A stretch of 64,000 nucleotides of DNA from an uncultured Candidatus Saccharibacteria bacterium (lineage in GTDB: Bacteria; Patescibacteriota; Minisyncoccia; Sungbacterales; HO2-52-23): contig CAZPDF010000001.1 of assembly GCA_964585475.1 (NCBI GenBank), forward strand, positions 81,337 through 145,336. The letters run 5' to 3'. The first letter of the stretch is position 1. Each line of letters opens with the position of its first letter. The notes under the pieces were generated by a model. That model ran no database searches. It was given only the letters and a program-made list of their open reading frames with translations, and was not told the DNA's origin. Shown piece by piece: positions 1,772-46,090 of this stretch. The position numbers were made by a program, and so were the translations under genes.

Positions 1772-4252
1772 ATGGAAAAATCTAAAATTATCGTATTTTC
1801 CACCGCCTATCACCCATTTACAGGCGGTGCCGAGATTGCAATTCAGGAAGTATTGAGGCGGCTTCAAGACCGCTTTGACCCGCGCACAGAAAGGCCAAAT
1901 GAGCTAGGCGAGGCCAGCGGCCTTTTGTGCGGGGCTTCGCCCTCCGCACGGACCCCAAAAAGTAGTGGTAATACAAGGGAAAGTTCAAGCCCGTGCTCCG
2001 GGCTCCGTTTTTATATTGTAACTTCCCGTTTCAGGCGGGATTTACCAAAGATCGAAGAGCGACCCGAGGGAACCGTTATTCGGTTAGGGTTAGGGACACG
2101 TTTCGATAAATGGTTTCTCCCTTTTCTTGGTTTTTTTTCCGCCCGCAGAATCATTCGGTCAAATGTCAATGGTCAAACGTCAAATGTTGTCATGTGGGCC
2201 GTAGATATCGGGCAGGGGTCACTGGCAGCTGCGGTTTTCAAACTTTTTCATCCCCGCATCCCTTTAATTTTAACACTCCAATATGGATATGGAGCAGGAA
2301 GAGTTGTAGGGGGGCGACTTGGTCTTATTGGTGTGGCGTTTCGTTTCATGCTACGCCGCGCGGATTATGTCACAGCGATTTCAATATACTTATTAAATCT
2401 CGCGAAGAACCATGGATATAGAGGGTCGGGAAGCATAGTGCATAATGGAGTAGATATAGAAAAGTTCACCCCGTCATTCGACCGGGTGCCCCGTCGAATG
2501 ACGGGGCAAAATCCAAATTCTAAAACAGTAATCACTGTCTCCCGGTTGGTGCCCAAAAATGGCATAGATACGCTGATTAGCGCCATAGTCGAAGTTAAAA
2601 AATCAATCCCACAAATTCGTTGCCACATTCTTGGTGAAGGACCAGAAAAAGAAAGTTTAAAGTCACAAGTTAAAAGTTTAAAGTTGGATGAGAATGTCGA
2701 GTTTTTTGGGAATGTTCCGTATGACGAGATATCGAAATATCTTCACGAAGCCGATGTTTTTGTAAGGGCCTCGCGCTCGGAGGGCATGGGGAATGCATTT
2801 GTTGAAGCGTTGGCGGCAGGTGTCCCGATTATTGGCACGCCGGTTGAGGGAATACTTGATATTATTCAGGATGGCAAGACCGGTTTTTTTGCGCGGGTGG
2901 ACGATCCCAACGATCTTGCGCAAAAAATCGTCTATGTCCTTCAAAATGAAAAGGAGAGCGAGCAGAGCGTTACGGAAGGAAGACGAATGGTTGAAGAAAA
3001 ATTTTCCTGGAATGGGATCGCGCAAAAATACAGGTTTATTTTCGACCGCTACTATAGAGGCGAAACCTCTATAGTATCTATAGAGGTTTCGCCTCTCCGT
3101 ATAGTTATTGCCACCCCTCTTTATCCGCCACAGCTTGGGGGGCCAGCAATTTATGCAAAGAATTTAGGTGAGGAATTTTCTCGCTTAAGGCATCAAGTAT
3201 CCATTGTTTCCTTTGGTAAGTTTTTGCGTCTGCCGTCTTTGGTCAGGCATTTTCTTTATTTTTTTAAGGTTTTTCGTAGTTCCATTGGCGCGGATATTAT
3301 TTTTGCCCTGGATTATTTTAGCGTTGGGGCGCCGGCCGCCCTCGCCGCCCTGCTTTTATGTAAGCCACTCGTCATCCGCGTAGAAGGCGATTTTTTGTGG
3401 GAGAGTTATGTCGAGCGAAGAAGGAGCGATACAACTCTTTCTATGTTTTACCCCGCTAGAAGTCAGCCCCGACGTGACGTCGGGGCTGCCGTTCCGCCGG
3501 TGGCGGAACGGACTTCTAACGGGGCTTACCGGAATCTCCCGAGATTGTCGGCCAAAGAGCGAGTGATCCATTTTATAAGCCGGTGGGTACTTGGACGCTC
3601 GCGCATTCTTGTTTTTTCTTCGGAATGGCGCCGCGAGATGGTTGTCGGCTCACGCGGCCATCTCCGCAAGAAGTCGATAATTATCGGGAATGTATGGCCT
3701 CCGCTTCTCGAAAATCTTTCGGCAGTTTCTCAAGGATCTCGTGTAATTCTTTGGGCCGGCCGCATGCTTTATTTAAAAAATCTATATCGTCTGCTCCGCG
3801 CGTTTTCCCGACTAAAATCTGATTACGAACTGCATTTGGTAGGGGATGGTCCGGAAGCGGAACGGCTAAAAAACTTTGTCACGCAGGAACGGATCAAGAA
3901 AGTTTTCTTTTTTCCCAAACTCCCGCATGAGGCGCTGCTTAAGAAAATGCGTGAGGCGGCATTTTTTGTTCTGCCCTCGCTTTCCGAGGTGGGCCCGAAC
4001 GTGATTGCTGATGCGGCATCTTCAGGAACCCCTTTTATTATGACGAGAGAGTCGGGTTATGCCGAGTATGCCAAGGATTTTGGAATTTTCGTTGATCCGC
4101 TCAATGAAAATGAGCTCACGCAAAAGTTGGGGATGCTAATGGAGGAGACCGCGCGCTATAATATAAGAAAGGGAATTATTAAATTCTACAGCGCCTATAC
4201 ATGGGGCGAGGCTGCTCAAGAATGGATTCAAGTATTCTCAAAGGTTCTATGA
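1772..4252 (+). CDS. Tandem-fused GT4-family (GT-B fold) glycosyltransferase with two complete GT4 units
   Basis: Two N-terminal GT4 motifs ('FSTAYHPFTGGAEI', 'IATPLYPPQLGGPAIY'). Two Glycos_transf_1-type C-domains ('EGMGNAFVEALAAGVPIIGT', 'SEVGPNVIADAASSGTPFIMT'). Confidence 0.7.
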   Translation: MEKSKIIVFSTAYHPFTGGAEIAIQEVLRRLQDRFDPRTERPNELGEASGLLCGASPSARTPKSSGNTRESSSPCSGLRFYIVTSRFRRDLPKIEERPEGTVIRLGLGTRFDKWFLPFLGFFSARRIIRSNVNGQTSNVVMWAVDIGQGSLAAAVFKLFHPRIPLILTLQYGYGAGRVVGGRLGLIGVAFRFMLRRADYVTAISIYLLNLAKNHGYRGSGSIVHNGVDIEKFTPSFDRVPRRMTGQNPNSKTVITVSRLVPKNGIDTLISAIVEVKKSIPQIRCHILGEGPEKESLKSQVKSLKLDENVEFFGNVPYDEISKYLHEADVFVRASRSEGMGNAFVEALAAGVPIIGTPVEGILDIIQDGKTGFFARVDDPNDLAQKIVYVLQNEKESEQSVTEGRRMVEEKFSWNGIAQKYRFIFDRYYRGETSIVSIEVSPLRIVIATPLYPPQLGGPAIYAKNLGEEFSRLRHQVSIVSFGKFLRLPSLVRHFLYFFKVFRSSIGADIIFALDYFSVGAPAALAALLLCKPLVIRVEGDFLWESYVERRRSDTTLSMFYPARSQPRRDVGAAVPPVAERTSNGAYRNLPRLSAKERVIHFISRWVLGRSRILVFSSEWRREMVVGSRGHLRKKSIIIGNVWPPLLENLSAVSQGSRVILWAGRMLYLKNLYRLLRAFSRLKSDYELHLVGDGPEAERLKNFVTQERIKKVFFFPKLPHEALLKKMREAAFFVLPSLSEVGPNVIADAASSGTPFIMTRESGYAEYAKDFGIFVDPLNENELTQKLGMLMEETARYNIRKGIIKFYSAYTWGEAAQEWIQVFSKVL
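3451..3524. repeat. Family-B palindromic element (CCCCGCTAGAAGTC...GACTTCTAACGGGG) inserted in frame in the GT4 fusion gene
   Basis: 14-bp terminal inverted repeats enclose the hairpin GCCCCGACGTGACGTCGGGGC. It is about 75 bp (25 codons) with no stop and encodes PARSQ...ERTSNGA. Confidence 0.7.
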
Positions 4253-38997: not shown

Positions 38998-39216
38998 ATG
39001 AATACCATAACAATTCCTAAAAAAATAGCATCCCGAGATGATCTTATAGTTATTCCACGCAGGGAGTACGAGGCGCTTTTGGAATCGAGAAAGTTTAAAG
39101 AGTTTTCGCCAACTGGGGTACAAAAAAAAGCATTGGCAAGGGCAGAACAGAATTTTCGTAAAGGAAAAACCCTCTCGTATTATGGACTTGTCAAAAAGTT
39201 GGGGTTTGCAGATTGA
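38998..39216 (+). CDS. AbrB/MazE/SpoVT-type antitoxin
   Basis: 'TITIPKKIASRDDLIVIPRREYEALLE' swapped-hairpin-like. Precedes and overlaps the RelE-like gene. Confidence 0.45.
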   Translation: MNTITIPKKIASRDDLIVIPRREYEALLESRKFKEFSPTGVQKKALARAEQNFRKGKTLSYYGLVKKLGFAD

Positions 39217-39451
39217 CCCAGGTGTTTTTAAAACTTTCAAGCGGACACCTCGGCATGACGCCGAGGTTCTTCTTGAAGTAATGCGGCTTCTGCCAGTCAA
39301 TCCTTACTTCGGTGATATTCAGAAGATGAAAGGCGAAGATAACGCGTGGCGCCGCCGCATAGGTTCATATAGGATTTTCTATCGAATCAAAATCACCGAA
39401 AAAGTAATCCTGGTATTTCACCTCGAACGGAGAACTTCAAAAACGTATTGA
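39182..39451 (+). CDS. RelE/ParE-family type II toxin
   Basis: 'NAWRRRIGSYRIFYRIKITEKVILVFHLERRTSKTY' is a classic RelE C-terminus. The true start may be internal. Confidence 0.7.
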   Translation: MDLSKSWGLQIDPGVFKTFKRTPRHDAEVLLEVMRLLPVNPYFGDIQKMKGEDNAWRRRIGSYRIFYRIKITEKVILVFHLERRTSKTY

Positions 39452-39461
39452 GTGAGTTCCT

Positions 39462-40610
39462 ATGGGAAATAAAAAAGGACACATTTTGATTACCGGAGGG
39501 GCTGGGTTTATCGGCTTTTATCTTGCCGAATTATTTCGAGAATCCGGATTTTCAGTAAGAATCCTGGACGTTGCTTCGCGTCCTGATGGTTTAGCGAAAG
39601 ACATTGAATACTTCCAGGGTGATGTAACAAGCAAAGGATCATGGAGCCGCGCACTTCAGGGAATAAGCCACGTGTTCCATCTTGCGGCCTATGGCGATAA
39701 CCGTCCGGACTTTCACAAGTGTTTTACCGTAAATGCCGCGGCGTCCGCGCTTCTTTATGAAGTTATAAGAGATGAAAAGTTGCCGGTTAAGCAGATAATT
39801 GTCGCGTCTTCCCAGTCGGTGTACGGAGAAGGGAAATATCTTTGTAAAACTCACGGGGTATTTTATCCCGTCTCAAGAGTAAAGAAAGATTTAGAATCAG
39901 GACTGTGGGATATTCATTGTCCGGAAGACGGCTTGCTGGCAGAAGTTCTGCCGTCCGCAGAAGAAGATAAGCTCTGTCCAGTTTCCCCTTACGGCATATC
40001 GAAGATGGCGGTTGACCACATTGCGCTTACCCTGGGCAGGGAGTTAAACATTCCTTCTGTGGCCCTGCGTTATTCCATGGCAAGCGGAGCGTATCCTTCC
40101 ATGCGCGCAATTTATCCCAATGCCATTAAATATTTCACGGAGCAGGCATTGAAAAATGAATCGATTTCTCTGCATGAAGACGGAAATCAGTCGCGCGATT
40201 TTATAGATATCCGCGACCTTGGAAAAGCCCACCTTGCGGTTTTGGATAATCCGGCTGTATATTTTCAGGCCTTCAATATAGGAAGCGGCAAGTCAATTAA
40301 AATTCGCGATCTTGCAGAGATGGTGTATAAAATTGTCGGAGTCGAATTTACCCCCCCACCAGAAAGACGCACCCAGAAAGACGAAAGCGATTGGCAAAAA
40401 AAGGCGAAGCGTAGAATAGGGGTGCATAGGTATAAACTTATGGTGGGGGGGTTTAAGCCGGTTTTCCGAAATGAGTTCCGTCCCTTTACTCCGCGTCATA
40501 TGGTAATGTCTATTAAAAAAATTAAAGATGTCCTCGGCTGGCGCCCCGTACATACTTTGGAAGAAAGTATCACAGAATATATAACGGCGGTCAAAAATAA
40601 AAGCGCATAA
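39462..40610 (+). CDS. NAD-dependent nucleotide-sugar epimerase/dehydratase (extended SDR), with an in-frame family-E repeat
   Basis: 'ILITGGAGFIGFYL'. 'YGISKMAVDH' (YxxxK). Paralog of 44969..46090(-). Confidence 0.7.
   Translation: MGNKKGHILITGGAGFIGFYLAELFRESGFSVRILDVASRPDGLAKDIEYFQGDVTSKGSWSRALQGISHVFHLAAYGDNRPDFHKCFTVNAAASALLYEVIRDEKLPVKQIIVASSQSVYGEGKYLCKTHGVFYPVSRVKKDLESGLWDIHCPEDGLLAEVLPSAEEDKLCPVSPYGISKMAVDHIALTLGRELNIPSVALRYSMASGAYPSMRAIYPNAIKYFTEQALKNESISLHEDGNQSRDFIDIRDLGKAHLAVLDNPAVYFQAFNIGSGKSIKIRDLAEMVYKIVGVEFTPPPERRTQKDESDWQKKAKRRIGVHRYKLMVGGFKPVFRNEFRPFTPRHMVMSIKKIKDVLGWRPVHTLEESITEYITAVKNKSA
40350..40452. repeat. Family-E palindromic element (ACCCCCCCACCA...TGGTGGGGGGGT) in frame in the epimerase gene
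   Basis: 12-bp perfect terminal inverted repeats. Encodes FTPPPERRTQKDESDWQKKAKRRIGVHRYKLMVGGFKP, absent from the paralog at 44969. Confidence 0.65.
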
Positions 40611-40632
40611 AAAGCCTGCATAAAGTTTGTTT

Positions 40633-40667
40633 TAACATTATTGATGCGGTCGCATCATCGATGTTAA
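40633..40667. promoter_or_regulatory. Palindromic operator TTAACAT-N3-TGATGCGGTCGCATCA-N3-ATGTTAA upstream of the wHTH regulator gene
   Basis: Nested dyad symmetry. A second copy lies at 41234..41269. Confidence 0.5.
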
Positions 40668-40682
40668 AATAAATTTATCCCC

Positions 40683-41210
40683 ATGGCAAAGTCATTAGTC
40701 CGGGAAATACTGGAACATTTAGCTATCTGTGCCCCCCGCCTGATGGTGGACTCGCTTTTTATTCCTTATGGCCAAAGTTTAGGACGGACTTTGCGGCAGA
40801 TTGAAAAGTTGGCGGCCCTCTGTCCCCACGATTTTTCAGGTCATTCCAGGGGCACCGTCTCGGTCACGCTCCATAGAATGAAAAAGAACAAGTTGGTATC
40901 CATAAGCGGCCCCAAGAAAAAAGCGATATGGCGTATTACGCAGAAAGGAAAAAGCCATTTCAAAAATATAGAAAAGGGAATTAGTCTTCCGCCCGAGGAC
41001 GGAAAGACGCGGGTGATAATGTTCGACATACCCGAAGACAGGCGAGTAGAAAGAAACTGGTTACGCGGGGAATTGTCGGCTTGTGATTATACTCCCCTTC
41101 AAAAGAGTGTTTTTATGGGCACAAGACCGTTGCCGACAAGATTGTTGGAAGAACTCGAGAGTCGGGGGTTGCTTTCTCATATACACGTGGTCGGACTGGA
41201 GAGCGATTAG
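40683..41210 (+). CDS. Winged-HTH transcriptional regulator with a PaaX-middle/Cas2-like C-terminal domain (mini PaaX-like repressor)
   Basis: wHTH 'GTVSVTLHRMKKNKLVSISGPKKKAIWRITQKG'. C-terminal 'RVIMFDIPEDRRVERNWLRGELSACDYTPLQKSVFMG' resembles the PaaX_M/Cas2-like fold. Confidence 0.35.
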   Translation: MAKSLVREILEHLAICAPRLMVDSLFIPYGQSLGRTLRQIEKLAALCPHDFSGHSRGTVSVTLHRMKKNKLVSISGPKKKAIWRITQKGKSHFKNIEKGISLPPEDGKTRVIMFDIPEDRRVERNWLRGELSACDYTPLQKSVFMGTRPLPTRLLEELESRGLLSHIHVVGLESD

Positions 41211-41233
41211 AGTCCAAGATTTTATTTTAAATT

Positions 41234-41269
41234 TTAACATCAAATATGCGGTCGCATGATAGATGTTAA
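41234..41269. promoter_or_regulatory. Second copy of the palindromic operator (TTAACATC-N4-ATGCGGTCGCAT-N4-GATGTTAA) upstream of the PP2C gene
   Basis: Near-identical to 40633..40667. Confidence 0.5.
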
Positions 41270-41343
41270 AATAAAGTGGTTTCTCTCAAAAGCTTGTAGC
41301 CAGGGTATCTTGTTTACATTGACAGAGGCGGTTCTTAGCGTTA

Positions 41344-42198
41344 ATGTCGATAAGGTCCTTAACGGCGAGATTAGACATGCACAATTTCAGATATATCGAA
41401 TCTTTATGCGATCTTACGCCCAAAAAAGAAGATGCCCTGCTTCTGGGCGAAGATTTATTTGGGGTTTTTGATGGAGCCGGAAGTTTGGTAAAGTTCGTTG
41501 ACCCCAAAAGAGGAACGGGCGGAAGAATCGCATCCACCATAGCTCGCGACACTTTCTCTCTCCAAGAAGGACCTCTTCGAGATCTTGCTGCGGCGGCTAA
41601 TCGGGAGATCGGGACGCAGATGGTCGCAGCCGGAATTGATATAAGCAAAAAAGTCAATTTGTGGTGCACCACCGCTGCGGTGATAAGGATGCAGGAGGAT
41701 TCGTTCGAGTGGCTGGAGATCGGCGATTCGGCCGTACTTTTGATCAAGGGTGACAGACAGTTTGAACTGCTGGTTGACTATCAAGATCATGACCAGGAAC
41801 TTCTGGCGATTTGCAAAGAACTTGCAGAGAAAGGGGAGAAAGATCCTCATTCTGTAATTGTTGCCAATGGCCAAGCCCAAGCGCTAAAAGAAGATATTAA
41901 CGTAACATACGGTTGCCTGACAGGTGAGGACGAAGCCATGCGATGGGTTAAGTCCGGCACGAGATCTCTTGAGGGGATTGACCACATTCTAATGTTTACC
42001 GATGGCCTGCTGATTCCCAAGGAAGACCCCAAGGCACCGAACGATTGGGAAACGCTTGTACGGCTTTTTCTGGACGGTGGTCTGCGGAACACTGTAAATT
42101 ATGTGAGGGACTTGCAGAACAAAGACCCCTTCTGTTCTAAATATATCCGGTATCATCCGTATGACGACATTGCCGCGATTGCTCTTTCAAGAAAGTAA
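41344..42198 (+). CDS. PP2C-family (PPM) Ser/Thr protein phosphatase
   Basis: 'LLGEDLFGVFDGAGS' (PP2C motif aVfDGhGG). 'ILMFTDGLL' (DG metal-binding motif). Confidence 0.55.
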   Translation: MSIRSLTARLDMHNFRYIESLCDLTPKKEDALLLGEDLFGVFDGAGSLVKFVDPKRGTGGRIASTIARDTFSLQEGPLRDLAAAANREIGTQMVAAGIDISKKVNLWCTTAAVIRMQEDSFEWLEIGDSAVLLIKGDRQFELLVDYQDHDQELLAICKELAEKGEKDPHSVIVANGQAQALKEDINVTYGCLTGEDEAMRWVKSGTRSLEGIDHILMFTDGLLIPKEDPKAPNDWETLVRLFLDGGLRNTVNYVRDLQNKDPFCSKYIRYHPYDDIAAIALSRK

Positions 42199-42253
42199 TC
42201 GCCATTTTCAGCCAGCGCCGTTTAAAAGCGGCGACTTTTCACAAAGAGACGCT

Positions 42254-42790
42254 ATGCAAGGACGAGGATACTCACTTTGGTTAATACCTAACGATAGGAA
42301 CCGTGATATTTTCTCGGAAATAATAAAAAAGATTGCCGAGAAAGCCCGCACCCCTTCATTTGCTCCACACATAACGCTTCTGGGTGGAGTTTTGGGCTCC
42401 GAAGATGAGTTGAGAAAGAAAACTAGGTTCTTGATCAAAGAACAATCCGAGTTCCAGATTTCTTTTTCAGGAATTGATTACGAAGATTATTACTTCCGAG
42501 CTTTATTTGTGAGAGCAGAATTAAACGAGTCCCTACGTTTGTTAAATATCCGCGCCAAAGAGATTTTCGGTATGAAAGACGCTCCTTCTTTTTATACGCC
42601 GCACCTGAGTTTGCTATATGGGGACTTCCCTTTAAACTTCAAAAAAGAACTTACCCGTTTTGCTGGAGGAATACCTGCCAGTCTTATCGTGCAAAGAGTA
42701 GATTTGTACAGAACAGAAGGGGAAGTAATCGGATGGCAAAAAGTAGAGGAGTTTCCTTTTCACTTTCAAAACACGACCCAAAATTCTTAA
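42254..42790 (+). CDS. 2H phosphoesterase superfamily (LigT/CPDase-like) protein
   Basis: Two H-x-T/S-x motifs 'PHITLLG' and 'PHLSLLYG' about 80 aa apart. ATG at 42254 within the track ORF 42161..42790. Confidence 0.55.
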   Translation: MQGRGYSLWLIPNDRNRDIFSEIIKKIAEKARTPSFAPHITLLGGVLGSEDELRKKTRFLIKEQSEFQISFSGIDYEDYYFRALFVRAELNESLRLLNIRAKEIFGMKDAPSFYTPHLSLLYGDFPLNFKKELTRFAGGIPASLIVQRVDLYRTEGEVIGWQKVEEFPFHFQNTTQNS

Positions 42791-42919
42791 AGGATTAAAC
42801 TTGATCTAATCTAAAGTGTGTAGGATTATAAAATATGTGTGCACATTACCCGGAGCTCTTGACAAGATGATGGTAGGTGATGTAATCTTGGTTCGGTGCG
42901 CAGAAGGAGACATGCGGCG

Positions 42920-43315
42920 ATGAAATTCCGCGATACGAGCAGATTTGAGCTGAGAATGTGGGGACAGTTGGTTGACGCTCTTTGTCCCATGCGGTTTGAA
43001 AGGGATGCGAACGACAAGGGTCTTTATCATTTTTATAATCAGGATGGTTCATTGTTTGTATCGATCAGACTGACCCGGCAGATGTTTGATGGCGATACCG
43101 GTGGCGAGGTATTTACCGACATGATAGTTGAGGTGATCTCGCCCGACGGGACTTCTATACGTGAGTCCTTTGTGGATGTTCGACGATTCCAAGATGATCC
43201 GCAGCATCCCCTCTGTGATCTTTTTGACTTGGTGCTGTGGCCAAACGATGTAGTTACGCCCAAAGCTCTTTCCCTGCATGCGTTTTTGGGATCGCTAAAT
43301 TTGACGGCGCGATAA
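42920..43315 (+). CDS. Hypothetical protein (131 aa)
   Basis: ORF with SD AAGGAGA 9 nt upstream of the ATG at 42920. No recognised motif. Confidence 0.3.
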   Translation: MKFRDTSRFELRMWGQLVDALCPMRFERDANDKGLYHFYNQDGSLFVSIRLTRQMFDGDTGGEVFTDMIVEVISPDGTSIRESFVDVRRFQDDPQHPLCDLFDLVLWPNDVVTPKALSLHAFLGSLNLTAR

Positions 43316-43401: not shown

Positions 43402-44094
43402 ATGCTAGAATGGCAGCCGACTCCGCTTGAGATGATGTCTGCAATGATGTTTGTTCTTTCCGAAGAACCGGTACCTTCAGACGCTCTATACGTGTTCGGT
43501 TCTATGGCGGATAGAGATCTTGATGCGAGAGAACTTAAAGCCGCGAGCGATCTTTACCAATCGGGGTTCGCTTCAAAGATAGTTGTGCATGGTGCTACCA
43601 TTGCAGAGGTAAGCGAATTATTTGATCTTGAGGGCTACGGATACGAATTCCTGAAAGCTGAACTTGTTAAGCTGGGAGTTCCTGAAGGCGACATTTTGTC
43701 TAATCCTCGTTCTTCTCATACTGCTGGCGAAGCAAGAAACTTCCTGCTTTTGGCTAAAGAGCAGGGATGGGAAAAGGTGACCATTATGGCGTATCCCTTC
43801 CATCAGTTGCGCTGCTTTTTACAGATGATCACGCTTATGGAAGAAACCGGGATACGGCTGAAAGTGTATAACAGAAGTTTTACCCTTCGCGGAGTTGATT
43901 GGCAAAGATCAATTAAGAGAGCCATACGGAAGGGCGCAAATCTTTTGGGTATGATGGACATAAATGAGCCGATGGAAATCCATGCAGCCGCGGATTACGA
44001 GCGCATAGTCAAGTACGCTCAAGATCCGGCCTTAACCGGCGAGCATTATACGCGTCATGCCACGATTCCTGAAATGTTTCGTTACGTTGCATAA
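43402..44094 (+). CDS. DUF218 (YdcF/ElyC/SanA-family) protein
   Basis: 'IMAYPFHQLRCFL' DUF218 motif. Paralog of 17480..18166. Confidence 0.45.
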   Translation: MLEWQPTPLEMMSAMMFVLSEEPVPSDALYVFGSMADRDLDARELKAASDLYQSGFASKIVVHGATIAEVSELFDLEGYGYEFLKAELVKLGVPEGDILSNPRSSHTAGEARNFLLLAKEQGWEKVTIMAYPFHQLRCFLQMITLMEETGIRLKVYNRSFTLRGVDWQRSIKRAIRKGANLLGMMDINEPMEIHAAADYERIVKYAQDPALTGEHYTRHATIPEMFRYVA

Positions 44095-44235: not shown

Positions 44236-44919
44236 CTAGTATCTTCCAGCAAGAAGGCAGTTGATGCCGTTAATCTCGCGGCTGAAGTTTCGCATGAAAG
44301 CATCGGATCTATGCATCGCAACAATTCGCGGTCTATATGCTTTGGGGTCGGCTTTGAGCACGACGTCTTCGCTGGCAAAGAACTGCAGTTCAAGGTGAGA
44401 AAACTCCGGCTTCACGAGGTGGCGCTGTGCCATGAGAAGGGCGCGTGCGTAGTGGACTGCAACCGTTACTACCCCAACTTTGGTAAAACCGCGTTCCACT
44501 GCTAATTCAAGTATATTCTGGAGCTCGCGGTTGGTATTTGATGGACCATCTACCACCCTATCACGAAGCCACACCAGGATTTCCGGTTTATCTTTGCCGA
44601 TGAGCTGGATGGTAAGCCATTCGCTCATCACTTCACTTTCGCTAGGTGCGTTAATAGATTGAAGATACGGGGAGCGCTGGCCGTAGGCGCAAACCACAAC
44701 CTGAAGTTTTTTTCGGTAATCTTTGCAAAGCTCGAGGCCCGCCAGAAGATTAAGTTCTCCGCCGCCGATCAGGCAGCGTGGATTGCTGTCATCAGCAGGT
44801 GCGCGTACCGGAAGGTGTGCTCCTTTCTCGTCGCAAACCTCCAAATTTTCGGTTAAAACCCATGGTCCATTCGGAGTTAATCTTTGAATGCCTCGTCCAA
44901 GAATGCCAAGTAGCTCCAC
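44236..44919 (-). CDS. DUF218 (YdcF-family)-like protein
   Basis: 'CLIGGGELN'. 'VGVVTVAVHYARAL' DUF218 motif. Confidence 0.4.
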   Translation of the reverse strand: MELLGILGRGIQRLTPNGPWVLTENLEVCDEKGAHLPVRAPADDSNPRCLIGGGELNLLAGLELCKDYRKKLQVVVCAYGQRSPYLQSINAPSESEVMSEWLTIQLIGKDKPEILVWLRDRVVDGPSNTNRELQNILELAVERGFTKVGVVTVAVHYARALLMAQRHLVKPEFSHLELQFFASEDVVLKADPKAYRPRIVAMHRSDAFMRNFSREINGINCLLAGRY

Positions 44920-44968: not shown

Positions 44969-46090
44969 TCAAAAAAGCAACCCCTTCTTTTTCATGTCCT
45001 TATCGGTCTTTTCAAGAAATTTTTTTGCTTCGGGATAGTTTTTAACCCACTCAACGTATTCGCGCACGCTCTCTTCCACGTTTCGCTTTGGCCTCCAGCC
45101 AAGTTTCTTTAATTTGGATATGTCCATGATGGAGTGGCGCGTGGTTGCCCAGCGGAAATGCCCTCCGGCATAGATTTTTTTGCGCGGCACGCCCAATGCC
45201 TTTCCTATGGTACGTGCAAGCTCAATCACCGGTATTGATTTTCCGGAACCCACATTAAACGCCTGATAATTTGCGCGGGAATCGCGAAGGACTGTTAGGT
45301 GCGCATCCACGACGTCGTGTACGTTTACGAAGTCGCGAAGCTGTCCTCCGTCCTCATGTGTTATTATGGCTTGGCCCGAAAGACCCATTACAATATAGGC
45401 GCGAATTGCTCCTGAATAAAAATGTCTGAAGGATTGATGAGCCCCCTGCACAATTGAGTAGCGGAGTGCTACCGACGGGATTTTATATAATTTGCCAAGG
45501 GCAAATAGCGCATGCTCGAGTGCCGCTTTCGATGCTCCATAGGCGTGGATTGGTTTTAAGACGTCGTCTTCCTTTTCCGGTAGGGGAGTTACTCGGTGGT
45601 TATCGTAGGGACAAAGAATTTCCCACTGCTTATTTTTAAGAGTTTTTATGGATCGGAAATCTGGATAGATAACCCCGTGTTTTTTGCAACTGTATTTTCC
45701 TTCGCCGTAAACCGATTGGGACGAGGCGGCCACGATTTTTTTAACCGGAAATTTGCTCTTCATGATCGTTTCGTACATCAAGGCGGTTCCCGCGGCGTTC
45801 GTCTCAAAATAAGTGCTGAAGTCGGAAAAAATATCCGTATAGGCCGCAAGGTGAAAAATATAATCAACGCCCTTTAACGCTTTTTCCCAGTCCTTGCGAT
45901 TGCGGACATCCCCATGCAGGAATTCCGCATGCGCATTAAACCACGGAGGCAATTTGCCGTTATGGGCTGGGGGCAAGAGGTTGTCTAAGACGCGGACGCG
46001 GTAGCCGTCTTTAATTAACCTATCGACAAGATGCGAGCCGATGAATCCCGCTCCTCCGGTAACCAAAATTGTTTCTTTCCTTTTGGCCAT
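44969..46090 (-). CDS. NAD-dependent nucleotide-sugar epimerase/dehydratase (extended SDR)
   Basis: 'ILVTGGAGFIGSHLVDRL'. 'YGASKAALEH'. Confidence 0.75.
   Translation of the reverse strand: MAKRKETILVTGGAGFIGSHLVDRLIKDGYRVRVLDNLLPPAHNGKLPPWFNAHAEFLHGDVRNRKDWEKALKGVDYIFHLAAYTDIFSDFSTYFETNAAGTALMYETIMKSKFPVKKIVAASSQSVYGEGKYSCKKHGVIYPDFRSIKTLKNKQWEILCPYDNHRVTPLPEKEDDVLKPIHAYGASKAALEHALFALGKLYKIPSVALRYSIVQGAHQSFRHFYSGAIRAYIVMGLSGQAIITHEDGGQLRDFVNVHDVVDAHLTVLRDSRANYQAFNVGSGKSIPVIELARTIGKALGVPRKKIYAGGHFRWATTRHSIMDISKLKKLGWRPKRNVEESVREYVEWVKNYPEAKKFLEKTDKDMKKKGLLF

Follow-up and report, generated by a model that had tools for sequence, protein, structure and literature searches.

A short PaaX-like protein encoded between twin nested palindromes in a Candidatus Saccharibacteria genome: a probable autorepressor with plausible control of the genes that follow it

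Why should a small gene be bracketed by two nearly identical palindromes? The question is raised by a locus in a 64,000-nt stretch of DNA (the window; positions 81,337 to 145,336 of contig CAZPDF010000001.1, assembly GCA_964585475.1) from an uncultured Candidatus Saccharibacteria bacterium, in which a gene for a 175-aa protein, hereafter the regulator, has on each side a 44-nt nested palindrome of the design TTTTAACAT-N5-ATGCGGTCGCAT-N5-ATGTTAAAATAAA. We call the upstream copy site U and the downstream copy site D (Table 1). An earlier note, made from the letters of the window, had described near-identical nested palindromes 5' of this gene and 5' of the PP2C-type phosphatase gene that follows it, and the sequence is as claimed. 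The reading that we favor, with a probability of roughly 0.6, is that the regulator is a short PaaX-like protein that represses its own gene through the twin sites, with site D gating the next gene.

Taken as a direct repeat, sites U and D match over 44 nt with 86% identity at an offset of 602 nt. The core of both is a palindrome of 5+2+5 design (ATGCG GT CGCAT), and the outer 7-mers form perfect inverted repeats, separated from the core by N5 spacers without symmetry. A search of the 64-kb window for the 36-nt pattern TTAACAT-N5-core-N5-ATGTTAA, with up to 3 mismatches allowed, returned just these two sites, against an expectation of 0.00 from 100 shuffles. Site U has its dyad between 40649 and 40650 and ends 10 nt from the regulator ATG, while site D begins 22 nt past the regulator stop codon and has its dyad 92 or 125 nt 5' of the two candidate start codons of the PP2C gene. 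An extended -10-like sequence, TGtTAAAAT, is found in the right arm of site U (40662-40670), 13 nt 5' of the regulator ATG, and the identical TGtTAAAAT stands in the right arm of site D (41264-41272); at site U the promoter scan returned TTGATG-18-TAAAAT with the TG (40641-40670). The terminator scan found no terminator-like site at either palindrome and none between the regulator gene and the PP2C gene. No U-tract follows either stem, and an Rfam scan of the window found no known RNA family. A further sequence of 5+2+5 design like that of the operator core, ATGTGTGCACAT at 42835-42846, was considered as a third operator and treated as a chance occurrence because the TTAACAT arms are absent. 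It lies 5' of a 139-aa open reading frame (ORF; 42896-43315) for which no match was found in Pfam, NCBIfam or PADLOC.

Table 1. Positions of the features discussed, numbered along the window except in the last row, which is numbered along the related locus L049.
Feature	Position	Strand	Details	Basis
Site U (upstream nested palindrome)	40630-40673	none	36-nt pattern at 40632-40667	Sequence reading, repeat and pattern search
Parts of site U	40632-40667		TTAACAT 40632-40638, N5, core ATGCGGTCGCAT 40644-40655, N5, ATGTTAA 40661-40667	
Regulator gene	40683-41210	+	175 aa; ORF between sites U and D	Pfam, NCBIfam, AlphaFold, Foldseek, family alignments
Site D (downstream nested palindrome)	41232-41275	none	36-nt pattern at 41234-41269	Sequence reading, repeat and pattern search
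Parts of site D	41234-41269		TTAACAT 41234-41240, core ATGCGGTCGCAT 41246-41257, ATGTTAA 41263-41269	
Candidate separate PP2C promoter	41319-41347	+	TTGACA 41319-41324, 17-nt spacer, TAATGT 41342-41347	Sequence reading
PP2C-type phosphatase gene	41377-42198	+	273 aa; alternative ATG 41344 gives 284 aa	Pfam PP2C_2
CPDase-type 2H phosphoesterase gene	42254-42790	+	178 aa; alternative ATG 42161 gives 209 aa	Pfam, 1FSI match
Array and DnaA features of L049	2490-2640, 2793-2801, 3614-3622, 3750-3790, 3800-3900			

Is the regulator the kind of protein that could occupy such sites? It is laid out as an N-terminal winged helix (residues ~33-97) followed by a Cas2-like PaaX_M domain (~105-172), the combination that the earlier note had proposed. 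Pfam PaaX_M (PF20803) matches residues 105-170 with an E-value of 3.4e-10 (40.3 bits, the cutoff being 24), and there are sub-threshold Pfam matches to Cas2, MarR_2/MarR and the PadR winged helix. Neither Cas2 model reaches its threshold (Pfam CRISPR_Cas2, 18.0 bits versus 23.8; TIGR01573, 16.8 versus 24.5), nor does the PaaX equivalog of NCBIfam, TIGR02277, with 19.3 bits versus 264.55. No match to Pfam PaaX_C was found in the regulator, the chain of which ends at residue 175, directly past the Cas2-like domain, at the point from which the effector-binding C-terminal domain of PaaX would extend.

The AlphaFold model made with 31 close homologues was mediocre (pLDDT 69), and a second, made with 70 diverse family members, had a pLDDT of 87.9. 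The predicted structure in the second model consists of three helices and a two-strand wing, then a beta-alpha-beta-beta-alpha-beta domain, with winged-helix elements at residues 33-45 and 56-68 (helices) and 72-85 (wing). In a Foldseek comparison with the PDB, the top match was E. coli PaaX (8a39; E 1.4e-4, probability 1.00, 187 columns including the winged helix), the next ranks being taken by 3kfw and 3l09, both of the PaaX family, and the ranks after these by numerous Cas2 proteins that align with the C-terminal ~70 residues; a further Foldseek comparison gave results of the same order of magnitude. The full-length alignments have a high root-mean-square deviation because the orientation of the domains differs. 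A PDB sequence search with family profiles returned only weak matches to PadR/MarR, Cas2 and PaaX. All of the residues that are invariant family-wide (F114, D115, P117, E118, R124, W126, R128, L131, Q140, S142, V143 and G146) belong to the Cas2-like domain; the winged helix conserves only its scaffold (L63, W83, T86 and G89), and a Cys/His set (C16, C47, H49 and H92) is conserved in the close subfamily only. Structure prediction, by which the earlier note had proposed to challenge its PaaX assignment, found the similarity, and the modeling supports the view that the regulator is a short PaaX homologue, predicted to have the winged-helix and Cas2-like dimerisation domains only; the effector domain is absent.

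How far does the arrangement extend beyond the window? A word-indexed protein search gave 31 homologues of 150-189 aa, all with PF20803 as their sole domain, and an exhaustive profile search gave 4,174 cluster representatives (50% identity) at E <= 1e-3 and 1,284 at E <= 1e-10; the 150 listed representatives are mostly 130-224 aa long, and nearly all family members have 150-220 aa. The genome records of the close relatives are metagenome-assembled genomes (MAGs) labelled uncultured Candidatus Saccharibacteria, and the metagenome matches include groundwater samples. We retrieved 72 related loci, given here as L numbers. In every close relative examined, one palindrome lies 30-70 nt 5' of the start of the gene and another 12-70 nt 3' of its stop, and flanking by two sites is also seen in most of the distant relatives, over a range of identity from 94% to ~32%; almost every homologous locus has a downstream copy. 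The centre of the palindrome is nearly always ACGATCGT (CG-RY-CG); the centre in the window, GCGGTCGC, is a one-transition variant that is also found in L001, L010, L013 and L053. The arms vary among loci and agree between both copies of one locus, as illustrated by L013 (TCTAACATTAGCTATCCGGTCGGATAGCTAATGTTAGA), L034 (CACAACATTCACCACGATCGTGGTGAATGTTGTG) and L061 (TACACTTTGCTGACGATCGTCAGCAAAGTGTA). When the upstream and downstream flanks were compared by their best shared 30-mer, the mean match was 25.4/30 within a locus versus 19.0/30 between loci (41 loci with both flanks; Mann-Whitney p = 4.6e-26). Throughout 340 kb of retrieved DNA, all but one of the CG-RY-CG palindromes with at least 9/13 arm matches adjoin family genes, and the dyad-to-dyad distance across loci is ~593-761 nt. 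The conserved entity is the site-gene-site unit, whatever the neighbour. In the literature we found no description of short PaaX_M-only proteins or of twin flanking palindromes, in a survey of incomplete coverage that makes an earlier description possible, and, within the same incomplete coverage, no CGATCG-centred operators except cyanobacterial HIP1.

What, then, is recognised at the sites, the DNA duplex or a folded strand? When 34 non-redundant site pairs were aligned on the dyad, agreement between the two copies had two maxima, 0.82-0.97 at +-12.5 to 16.5 and 0.79-0.97 at +-3.5 to 5.5, and dropped to 0.50-0.65 at +-6.5 to 8.5, and dyad symmetry followed a similar profile, with 0.90-0.94 in the outer patch and 0.44-0.49 at +-6.5 to 8.5. 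Each half-site thus has two patches with a periodicity of ~10 bp, i.e. one helical turn apart, around an invariant centre, which argues for a protein lying on one face of duplex DNA and not for a hairpin stem.

It could be argued instead that the palindromes form hairpins of RNA or single-stranded DNA, which would terminate or stabilise transcripts or mark where their ends are processed, perhaps with the Cas2-like domain bound to them, given that RNases are found among the relatives of Cas2. As RNA, the two sites fold with -21.2 and -15.1 kcal/mol (z = -6.6 and -5.3), each lies ~20 nt past the stop codon of a co-directional gene, and at symmetric positions that are not complementary the count of G/T versus A/C is 64 versus 39, a weak hint of plus-strand pairing. 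However, in addition to the lack of U-tracts and the fall in symmetry in the middle of the would-be stem with its ~10-bp periodicity, the N5 spacers in the window are not complementary, the would-be loop, CG-RY-CG, is the most conserved part of the site, and the regulator carries a winged helix like that of PaaX, a duplex-DNA binder. Moreover, upstream sites are found in divergent promoter regions: in L011 and L071, site U stands in front of a divergent upstream gene, so that it is not the terminator of that gene. Ordinary terminators are ruled out by the missing U-tracts together with the upstream sites in divergent intergenic regions, and continuous selection for a hairpin is ruled out by the dip in dyad symmetry at +-6.5 to 8.5. 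The earlier note had itself considered that the palindromes might be mere terminators with no conservation elsewhere, which fails on the same lack of U-tracts and on the conservation of both position and design around the homologues. Any hairpin-based explanation thus seems to us very improbable.

If the sites are read as duplex DNA, a simple scheme can be envisioned for an autorepressing PaaX-like protein. The arms shift with the sequence of the recognition helix across subfamilies, TVSVTLxRMKK going with TTAACAT, SIDNTLHRLKEKG with TCTTTTTT, and NLSSTLQRLKQQ with CAATGTTC. We infer that the regulator binds the sites, that binding represses, and that the PP2C and 2H phosphoesterase genes come under its control. 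In dimeric form, or as a dimer of dimers, the regulator would bind both palindromes around its own gene. Since site U overlaps the extended -10 located 13 nt before the start codon, its occupancy would shut off transcription of the regulator gene. Site D would gate the transcription that enters the next gene, either by repression of a promoter embedded in the site or by a block of read-through out of the regulator gene, the latter being conceivable because there is no terminator between the regulator and the next gene. In the window, the genes so gated would be PP2C and then the 2H phosphoesterase. The autoregulated-repressor part of this scheme is well supported; control of a neighbour by site D seems likely in many loci, and control of PP2C and 2H specifically by the regulator is plausible.

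The genes that follow site D allow the second half of the scheme to be weighed. In 13 of the 25 loci with enough sequence, the start of a co-directional ORF is no more than 220 nt from site D, and in the close subfamily the spacing from site D to the next ORF is typically 70-125 nt. Class II aminoacyl-tRNA synthetases with a ProRS-like start are found downstream in 7 loci; the other recurrent genes are NUDIX (at least 3 loci), SecA (2), ThrRS (2) and archease-RtcB (2), and a tRNA-Ser follows in L014 (confirmed by ARAGORN) and in L072 (read by eye). A LigT-type 2H enzyme is downstream in L011 (regulator 74% identical), and a type IV pilus ATPase in another relative. Ortholog groups keep the same downstream neighbour across long divergence, e.g. 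in the synteny HtpX-regulator-NUDIX. L069, with a regulator 91% identical, has the epimerase-regulator-PP2C order of the window and is the only relative that keeps PP2C downstream.

Several observations count against a role of site D in gating its neighbour, or against the scheme as a whole. In about half of the loci, no co-directional gene follows site D. In L015, where the regulator is 94% identical, PP2C is cut to its last ~110 nt (790-910) and there is no 2H gene, and both sites are intact; similarly, the RtcB gene after site D in L071 is a 42-codon N-terminal stump (2903-3031), again with the regulator and sites intact and with an archease gene upstream. In L050, convergent genes stand on the two sides of site D, in L004 site D is followed by a convergent small ORF with its terminator, and in the window the candidate PP2C promoter is located downstream of site D. 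Physical linkage and common descent confound the co-variation of site and protein. Lastly, the -10-like hexamers are not clearly directional family-wide, because the sites are palindromic and AT-rich.

Since the target has decayed in L015 and L071 while the regulator and sites are kept, site D may serve the regulator itself. Carried to its conclusion, this argument gives an alternative in which the sites belong to the regulator alone, its own level being set by a ~600-bp loop between U and D or by a roadblock or insulator, with PP2C and 2H as mere neighbours. Such an arrangement would account for a site-gene-site unit that is kept whatever the downstream gene and outlasts the loss of its neighbours, for the convergent genes around site D in L050 and L004, for a nearby co-directional gene in just 13 of the 25 loci, and for a PP2C gene with a candidate promoter of its own. 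It does not sit well with the ortholog groups that keep one downstream gene, as for a dedicated target (7 loci for aminoacyl-tRNA synthetases, at least 3 for NUDIX, 2 for SecA), nor with dyad spacings that vary (~593-761 nt) and have no obvious helical phasing. We consider this alternative unlikely, though it is to be taken seriously.

The same loci bear on the earlier note's picture of an autoregulated module of regulator, PP2C and 2H genes. The regulator and operator part of that picture agrees with the fold and the conserved sites, and the part specific to PP2C and 2H is not supported: in the genomic-context survey, PP2C is kept only in L069, is lost in L015 and is otherwise replaced by varying neighbours. 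The PP2C/2H link is thus not a property of the system, because the downstream genes vary and the sites persist after the loss of PP2C.

The two genes themselves are assigned by their domains. The PP2C ORF, a predicted phosphatase, matches Pfam PP2C_2 with 36.2 bits against a cutoff of 24 (E 5.8e-9); the Stp1 equivalog of NCBIfam scores 14.9 bits against 230, and both start variants are recorded among protein entries. The 2H ORF, which has HITL and HLSL motifs and which the earlier note had correctly placed with the LigT/CPDase type, matches Pfam CPDase with 50 bits against a cutoff of 21 (E 3.8e-13) and 2_5_RNA_ligase2 with E 2.4e-9, and it aligns to the Arabidopsis cyclic phosphodiesterase 1FSI (4.9e-8) with both H-x-T/S motifs matched. 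It is probably co-transcribed with PP2C. The candidate promoter TTGACA-17-TAATGT, which on its sequence could serve PP2C separately, lies 64 nt 3' of the dyad of site D and has been kept in L069; the promoter scan missed it because the -10 is weak.

Could the unit be a selfish or addictive one? In this explanation the regulator would either cut DNA as a nuclease directed to its sites or be a toxin like VapD that is joined to its own DNA-binding antitoxin domain, and the palindromes would be sites of cleavage, of homing or of a cassette boundary. The Asp at the catalytic position of Cas2 (D115, in FDIPE) is invariant or nearly so, as are E118, R124, R128 and S142, paralogues are found in several MAGs, contigs often end beside regulator genes, and the site-gene-site unit outlives its neighbours. 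However, the residues in question are common to proteins of the Cas2/PaaX_M fold and to the dimer interface of this fold, the synteny in ortholog groups is stable (HtpX-regulator-NUDIX; regulator then class II aminoacyl-tRNA synthetase), and the sites are not dispersed, with two in 64 kb. A phage or plasmid origin was rejected, as no relatives were found in viral contigs or in phage and plasmid records, and PADLOC gave sub-threshold Cas2 matches for the regulator and none for PP2C, 2H or ORF 42896-43315. A selfish unit is therefore scarcely credible to us. The same two negative results leave the role in defence or cyclic-nucleotide signalling suggested in the earlier note without support.

Some observations on the relatives deserve mention in their own right. 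L006 (4001-4528, protein P0015) is the sole locus with a CTATAG centre in place of CG-RY-CG, and P0015 is the sole member of the close alignment with FDISE in place of the near-invariant FDIPE; judged from these sequences, it is possible that this is a single case of protein-site co-variation involving the Cas2-like domain. At least two close paralogues of the regulator occur per genome in the pairs L005/L009 (one MAG) and L012/L013 (GCA_964467395.1). These paralogues share the TAACAT outer arms and differ in the inner patch (e.g. AAACGATCGTTT versus ATCCGGTCGGAT), and specificity therefore seems to reside beside the centre. In both L012 and L013 the contig breaks just after the regulator gene.

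A distant 210-aa subgroup (L035-L037, L040, L049 and L063) has arrays of the CGATCG palindrome on both sides of the gene, with three copies upstream at spacings of 56 and 68 nt and one to three, inverted, downstream. Also on both sides, and in inverted orientation, are perfect DnaA boxes (TTATCCACA), with matching hairpins and a long AT-rich tract. In its sequence, this arrangement looks like an iteron array or replication origin. Near the regulator of the window, DnaA boxes were considered and dismissed as unconvincing, all matches having 1 mismatch.

Genes concerned with tRNA or RNA ends follow site D in L004, L009, L010, L020, L022, L023, L027, L033 and L034, further in L014, L072, L064, L071 and L011, and in the window by virtue of its CPDase-type 2H gene.

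The surroundings in the window are a sugar-nucleotide and nonulosonate island, with NeuB, a cytidylyltransferase, epimerases and UDP-glucose dehydrogenase, in agreement with the glycan setting that the earlier note had described. No paa genes are nearby, the neighbours in the window being glycan-synthesis genes, PP2C, 2H and DUF218 genes and those in related loci housekeeping genes; there are likewise no cas1 or other cas genes among the annotated neighbours and, by Rfam, no CRISPR repeat family in the window. Directly after the regulator/PP2C/2H module there are two convergent DUF218-family paralogues (43402-44094, +; 44236-44919, -). Just upstream of the epimerase gene, the stretch 38998-39451 holds a small ORF and, overlapping with it, an ORF of the ParE toxin family (Pfam 1e-6), a probable toxin-antitoxin pair inside the glycan island, going by sequence. 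The epimerase gene itself (39462-40610) has a 35-aa in-frame insertion, TPPPERRTQKDESDWQKKAKRRIGVHRYKLMVGG, at 40350-40452, that is missing from the L069 orthologue and from the paralogue at 44969-46090(-). The ends of the insertion form a 15-nt inverted repeat (ACCCCCCCACCAGAA / TTATGGTGGGGGGGT) and a direct repeat (CCAGAAAGACG) lies inside; it looks like a small palindromic element that was inserted in frame.

What might the regulator family mean more broadly? To our knowledge, few transcription factors can be recognised in ultrasmall episymbiotic bacteria, and the regulation of their core genes is almost wholly unstudied. The locus exposes a rule in which a protein of 175 aa goes with a site of 46-bp design, constant at its centre and variable in its arms, that is present twice per gene. 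This rule appears to cover thousands of proteins and, among genes, those for aminoacyl-tRNA synthetases, SecA and enzymes of RNA repair. The regulator also shows a PaaX-type scaffold in use without the effector domain. As a doubtful extension, the short winged-helix/Cas2-like proteins could form a major undescribed regulatory system of ultrasmall bacteria of the candidate phyla radiation type, with the Cas2-like domain as the common sensor. In such a system, ~4,200 clusters at 50% identity may represent paralogues with a universal centre and private arms, each assigned to one housekeeping gene; the neighbours, which are very often tRNA or RNA-end genes (ProRS-like, ThrRS, tRNA-Ser, RtcB/archease, LigT and CPDase), may point to a Cas2-like domain that senses, for example, RNA or tRNA species or a nucleotide. 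Many single-gene operators may in this manner be tied to one signal, by analogy a protein counterpart of T-box or RtcR-type control. In a more radical version, the bracketed unit may act in DNA transactions and not in transcription, for which the site arrays and DnaA boxes of the distant subgroup are a hint.

How do these features compare with known systems? RAYT genes typically stand between REP palindromes that are the presumed targets of their product, and in the present family, too, copies of a palindrome that are presumably recognised by the gene product enclose the gene. However, REPs occur in tens to hundreds of dispersed copies, as opposed to two flanking copies in 64 kb, and the regulator is not an HUH transposase. 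To PadR/MarR proteins the regulator is likened by weak sequence matches, by its being a small winged-helix protein and a predicted dimer, and by a palindromic site that overlaps its own promoter; it differs in that dimerisation is predicted to occur via the Cas2-like domain and not via helices, and in that its site is far longer (36-46 bp, with two patches per half-site) and duplicated after the gene. With Cas2 and VapD it shares the ferredoxin-like fold of Cas2 over its C-terminal ~70 residues (Foldseek probability ~1.0), the Asp at the end of beta1 and the Q-K-S-V-F/W motif, but here the domain is fused to a winged helix, the Cas2 models stay below threshold, and the regulator is not itself a Cas2.

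The closest parallel is PaaX, the best structural match of the regulator, which likewise has a Cas2-like middle domain after its winged helix. In E. coli, the binding site of PaaX is TGATTC-N27-GAATCA, and PaaX keeps RNA polymerase away from its own Px promoter, which is thereby repressed (PMC9493321). The operator design is similar in the window, with 6-bp inverted repeats ~2.5-3 helical turns apart (N24 versus N27 in E. coli), and the outer arms TTAACA-N24-TGTTAA overlap TGtTAAAAT, making this a putative operator by the design of its sequence. PaaX differs in having ~305-316 residues versus 175, with a C-terminal helical domain that binds phenylacetyl-CoA and is absent in the regulator, while the conserved CG-RY-CG centre and the second site past the gene are extra features of the regulator family. 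Thus, the fold and the logic of autorepression are the known part of this system, and its unfamiliar part consists of an architecture that lacks the effector domain, a bipartite site of 36-46 bp whose centre is universal and, throughout the family, a gene enclosed by two such sites.

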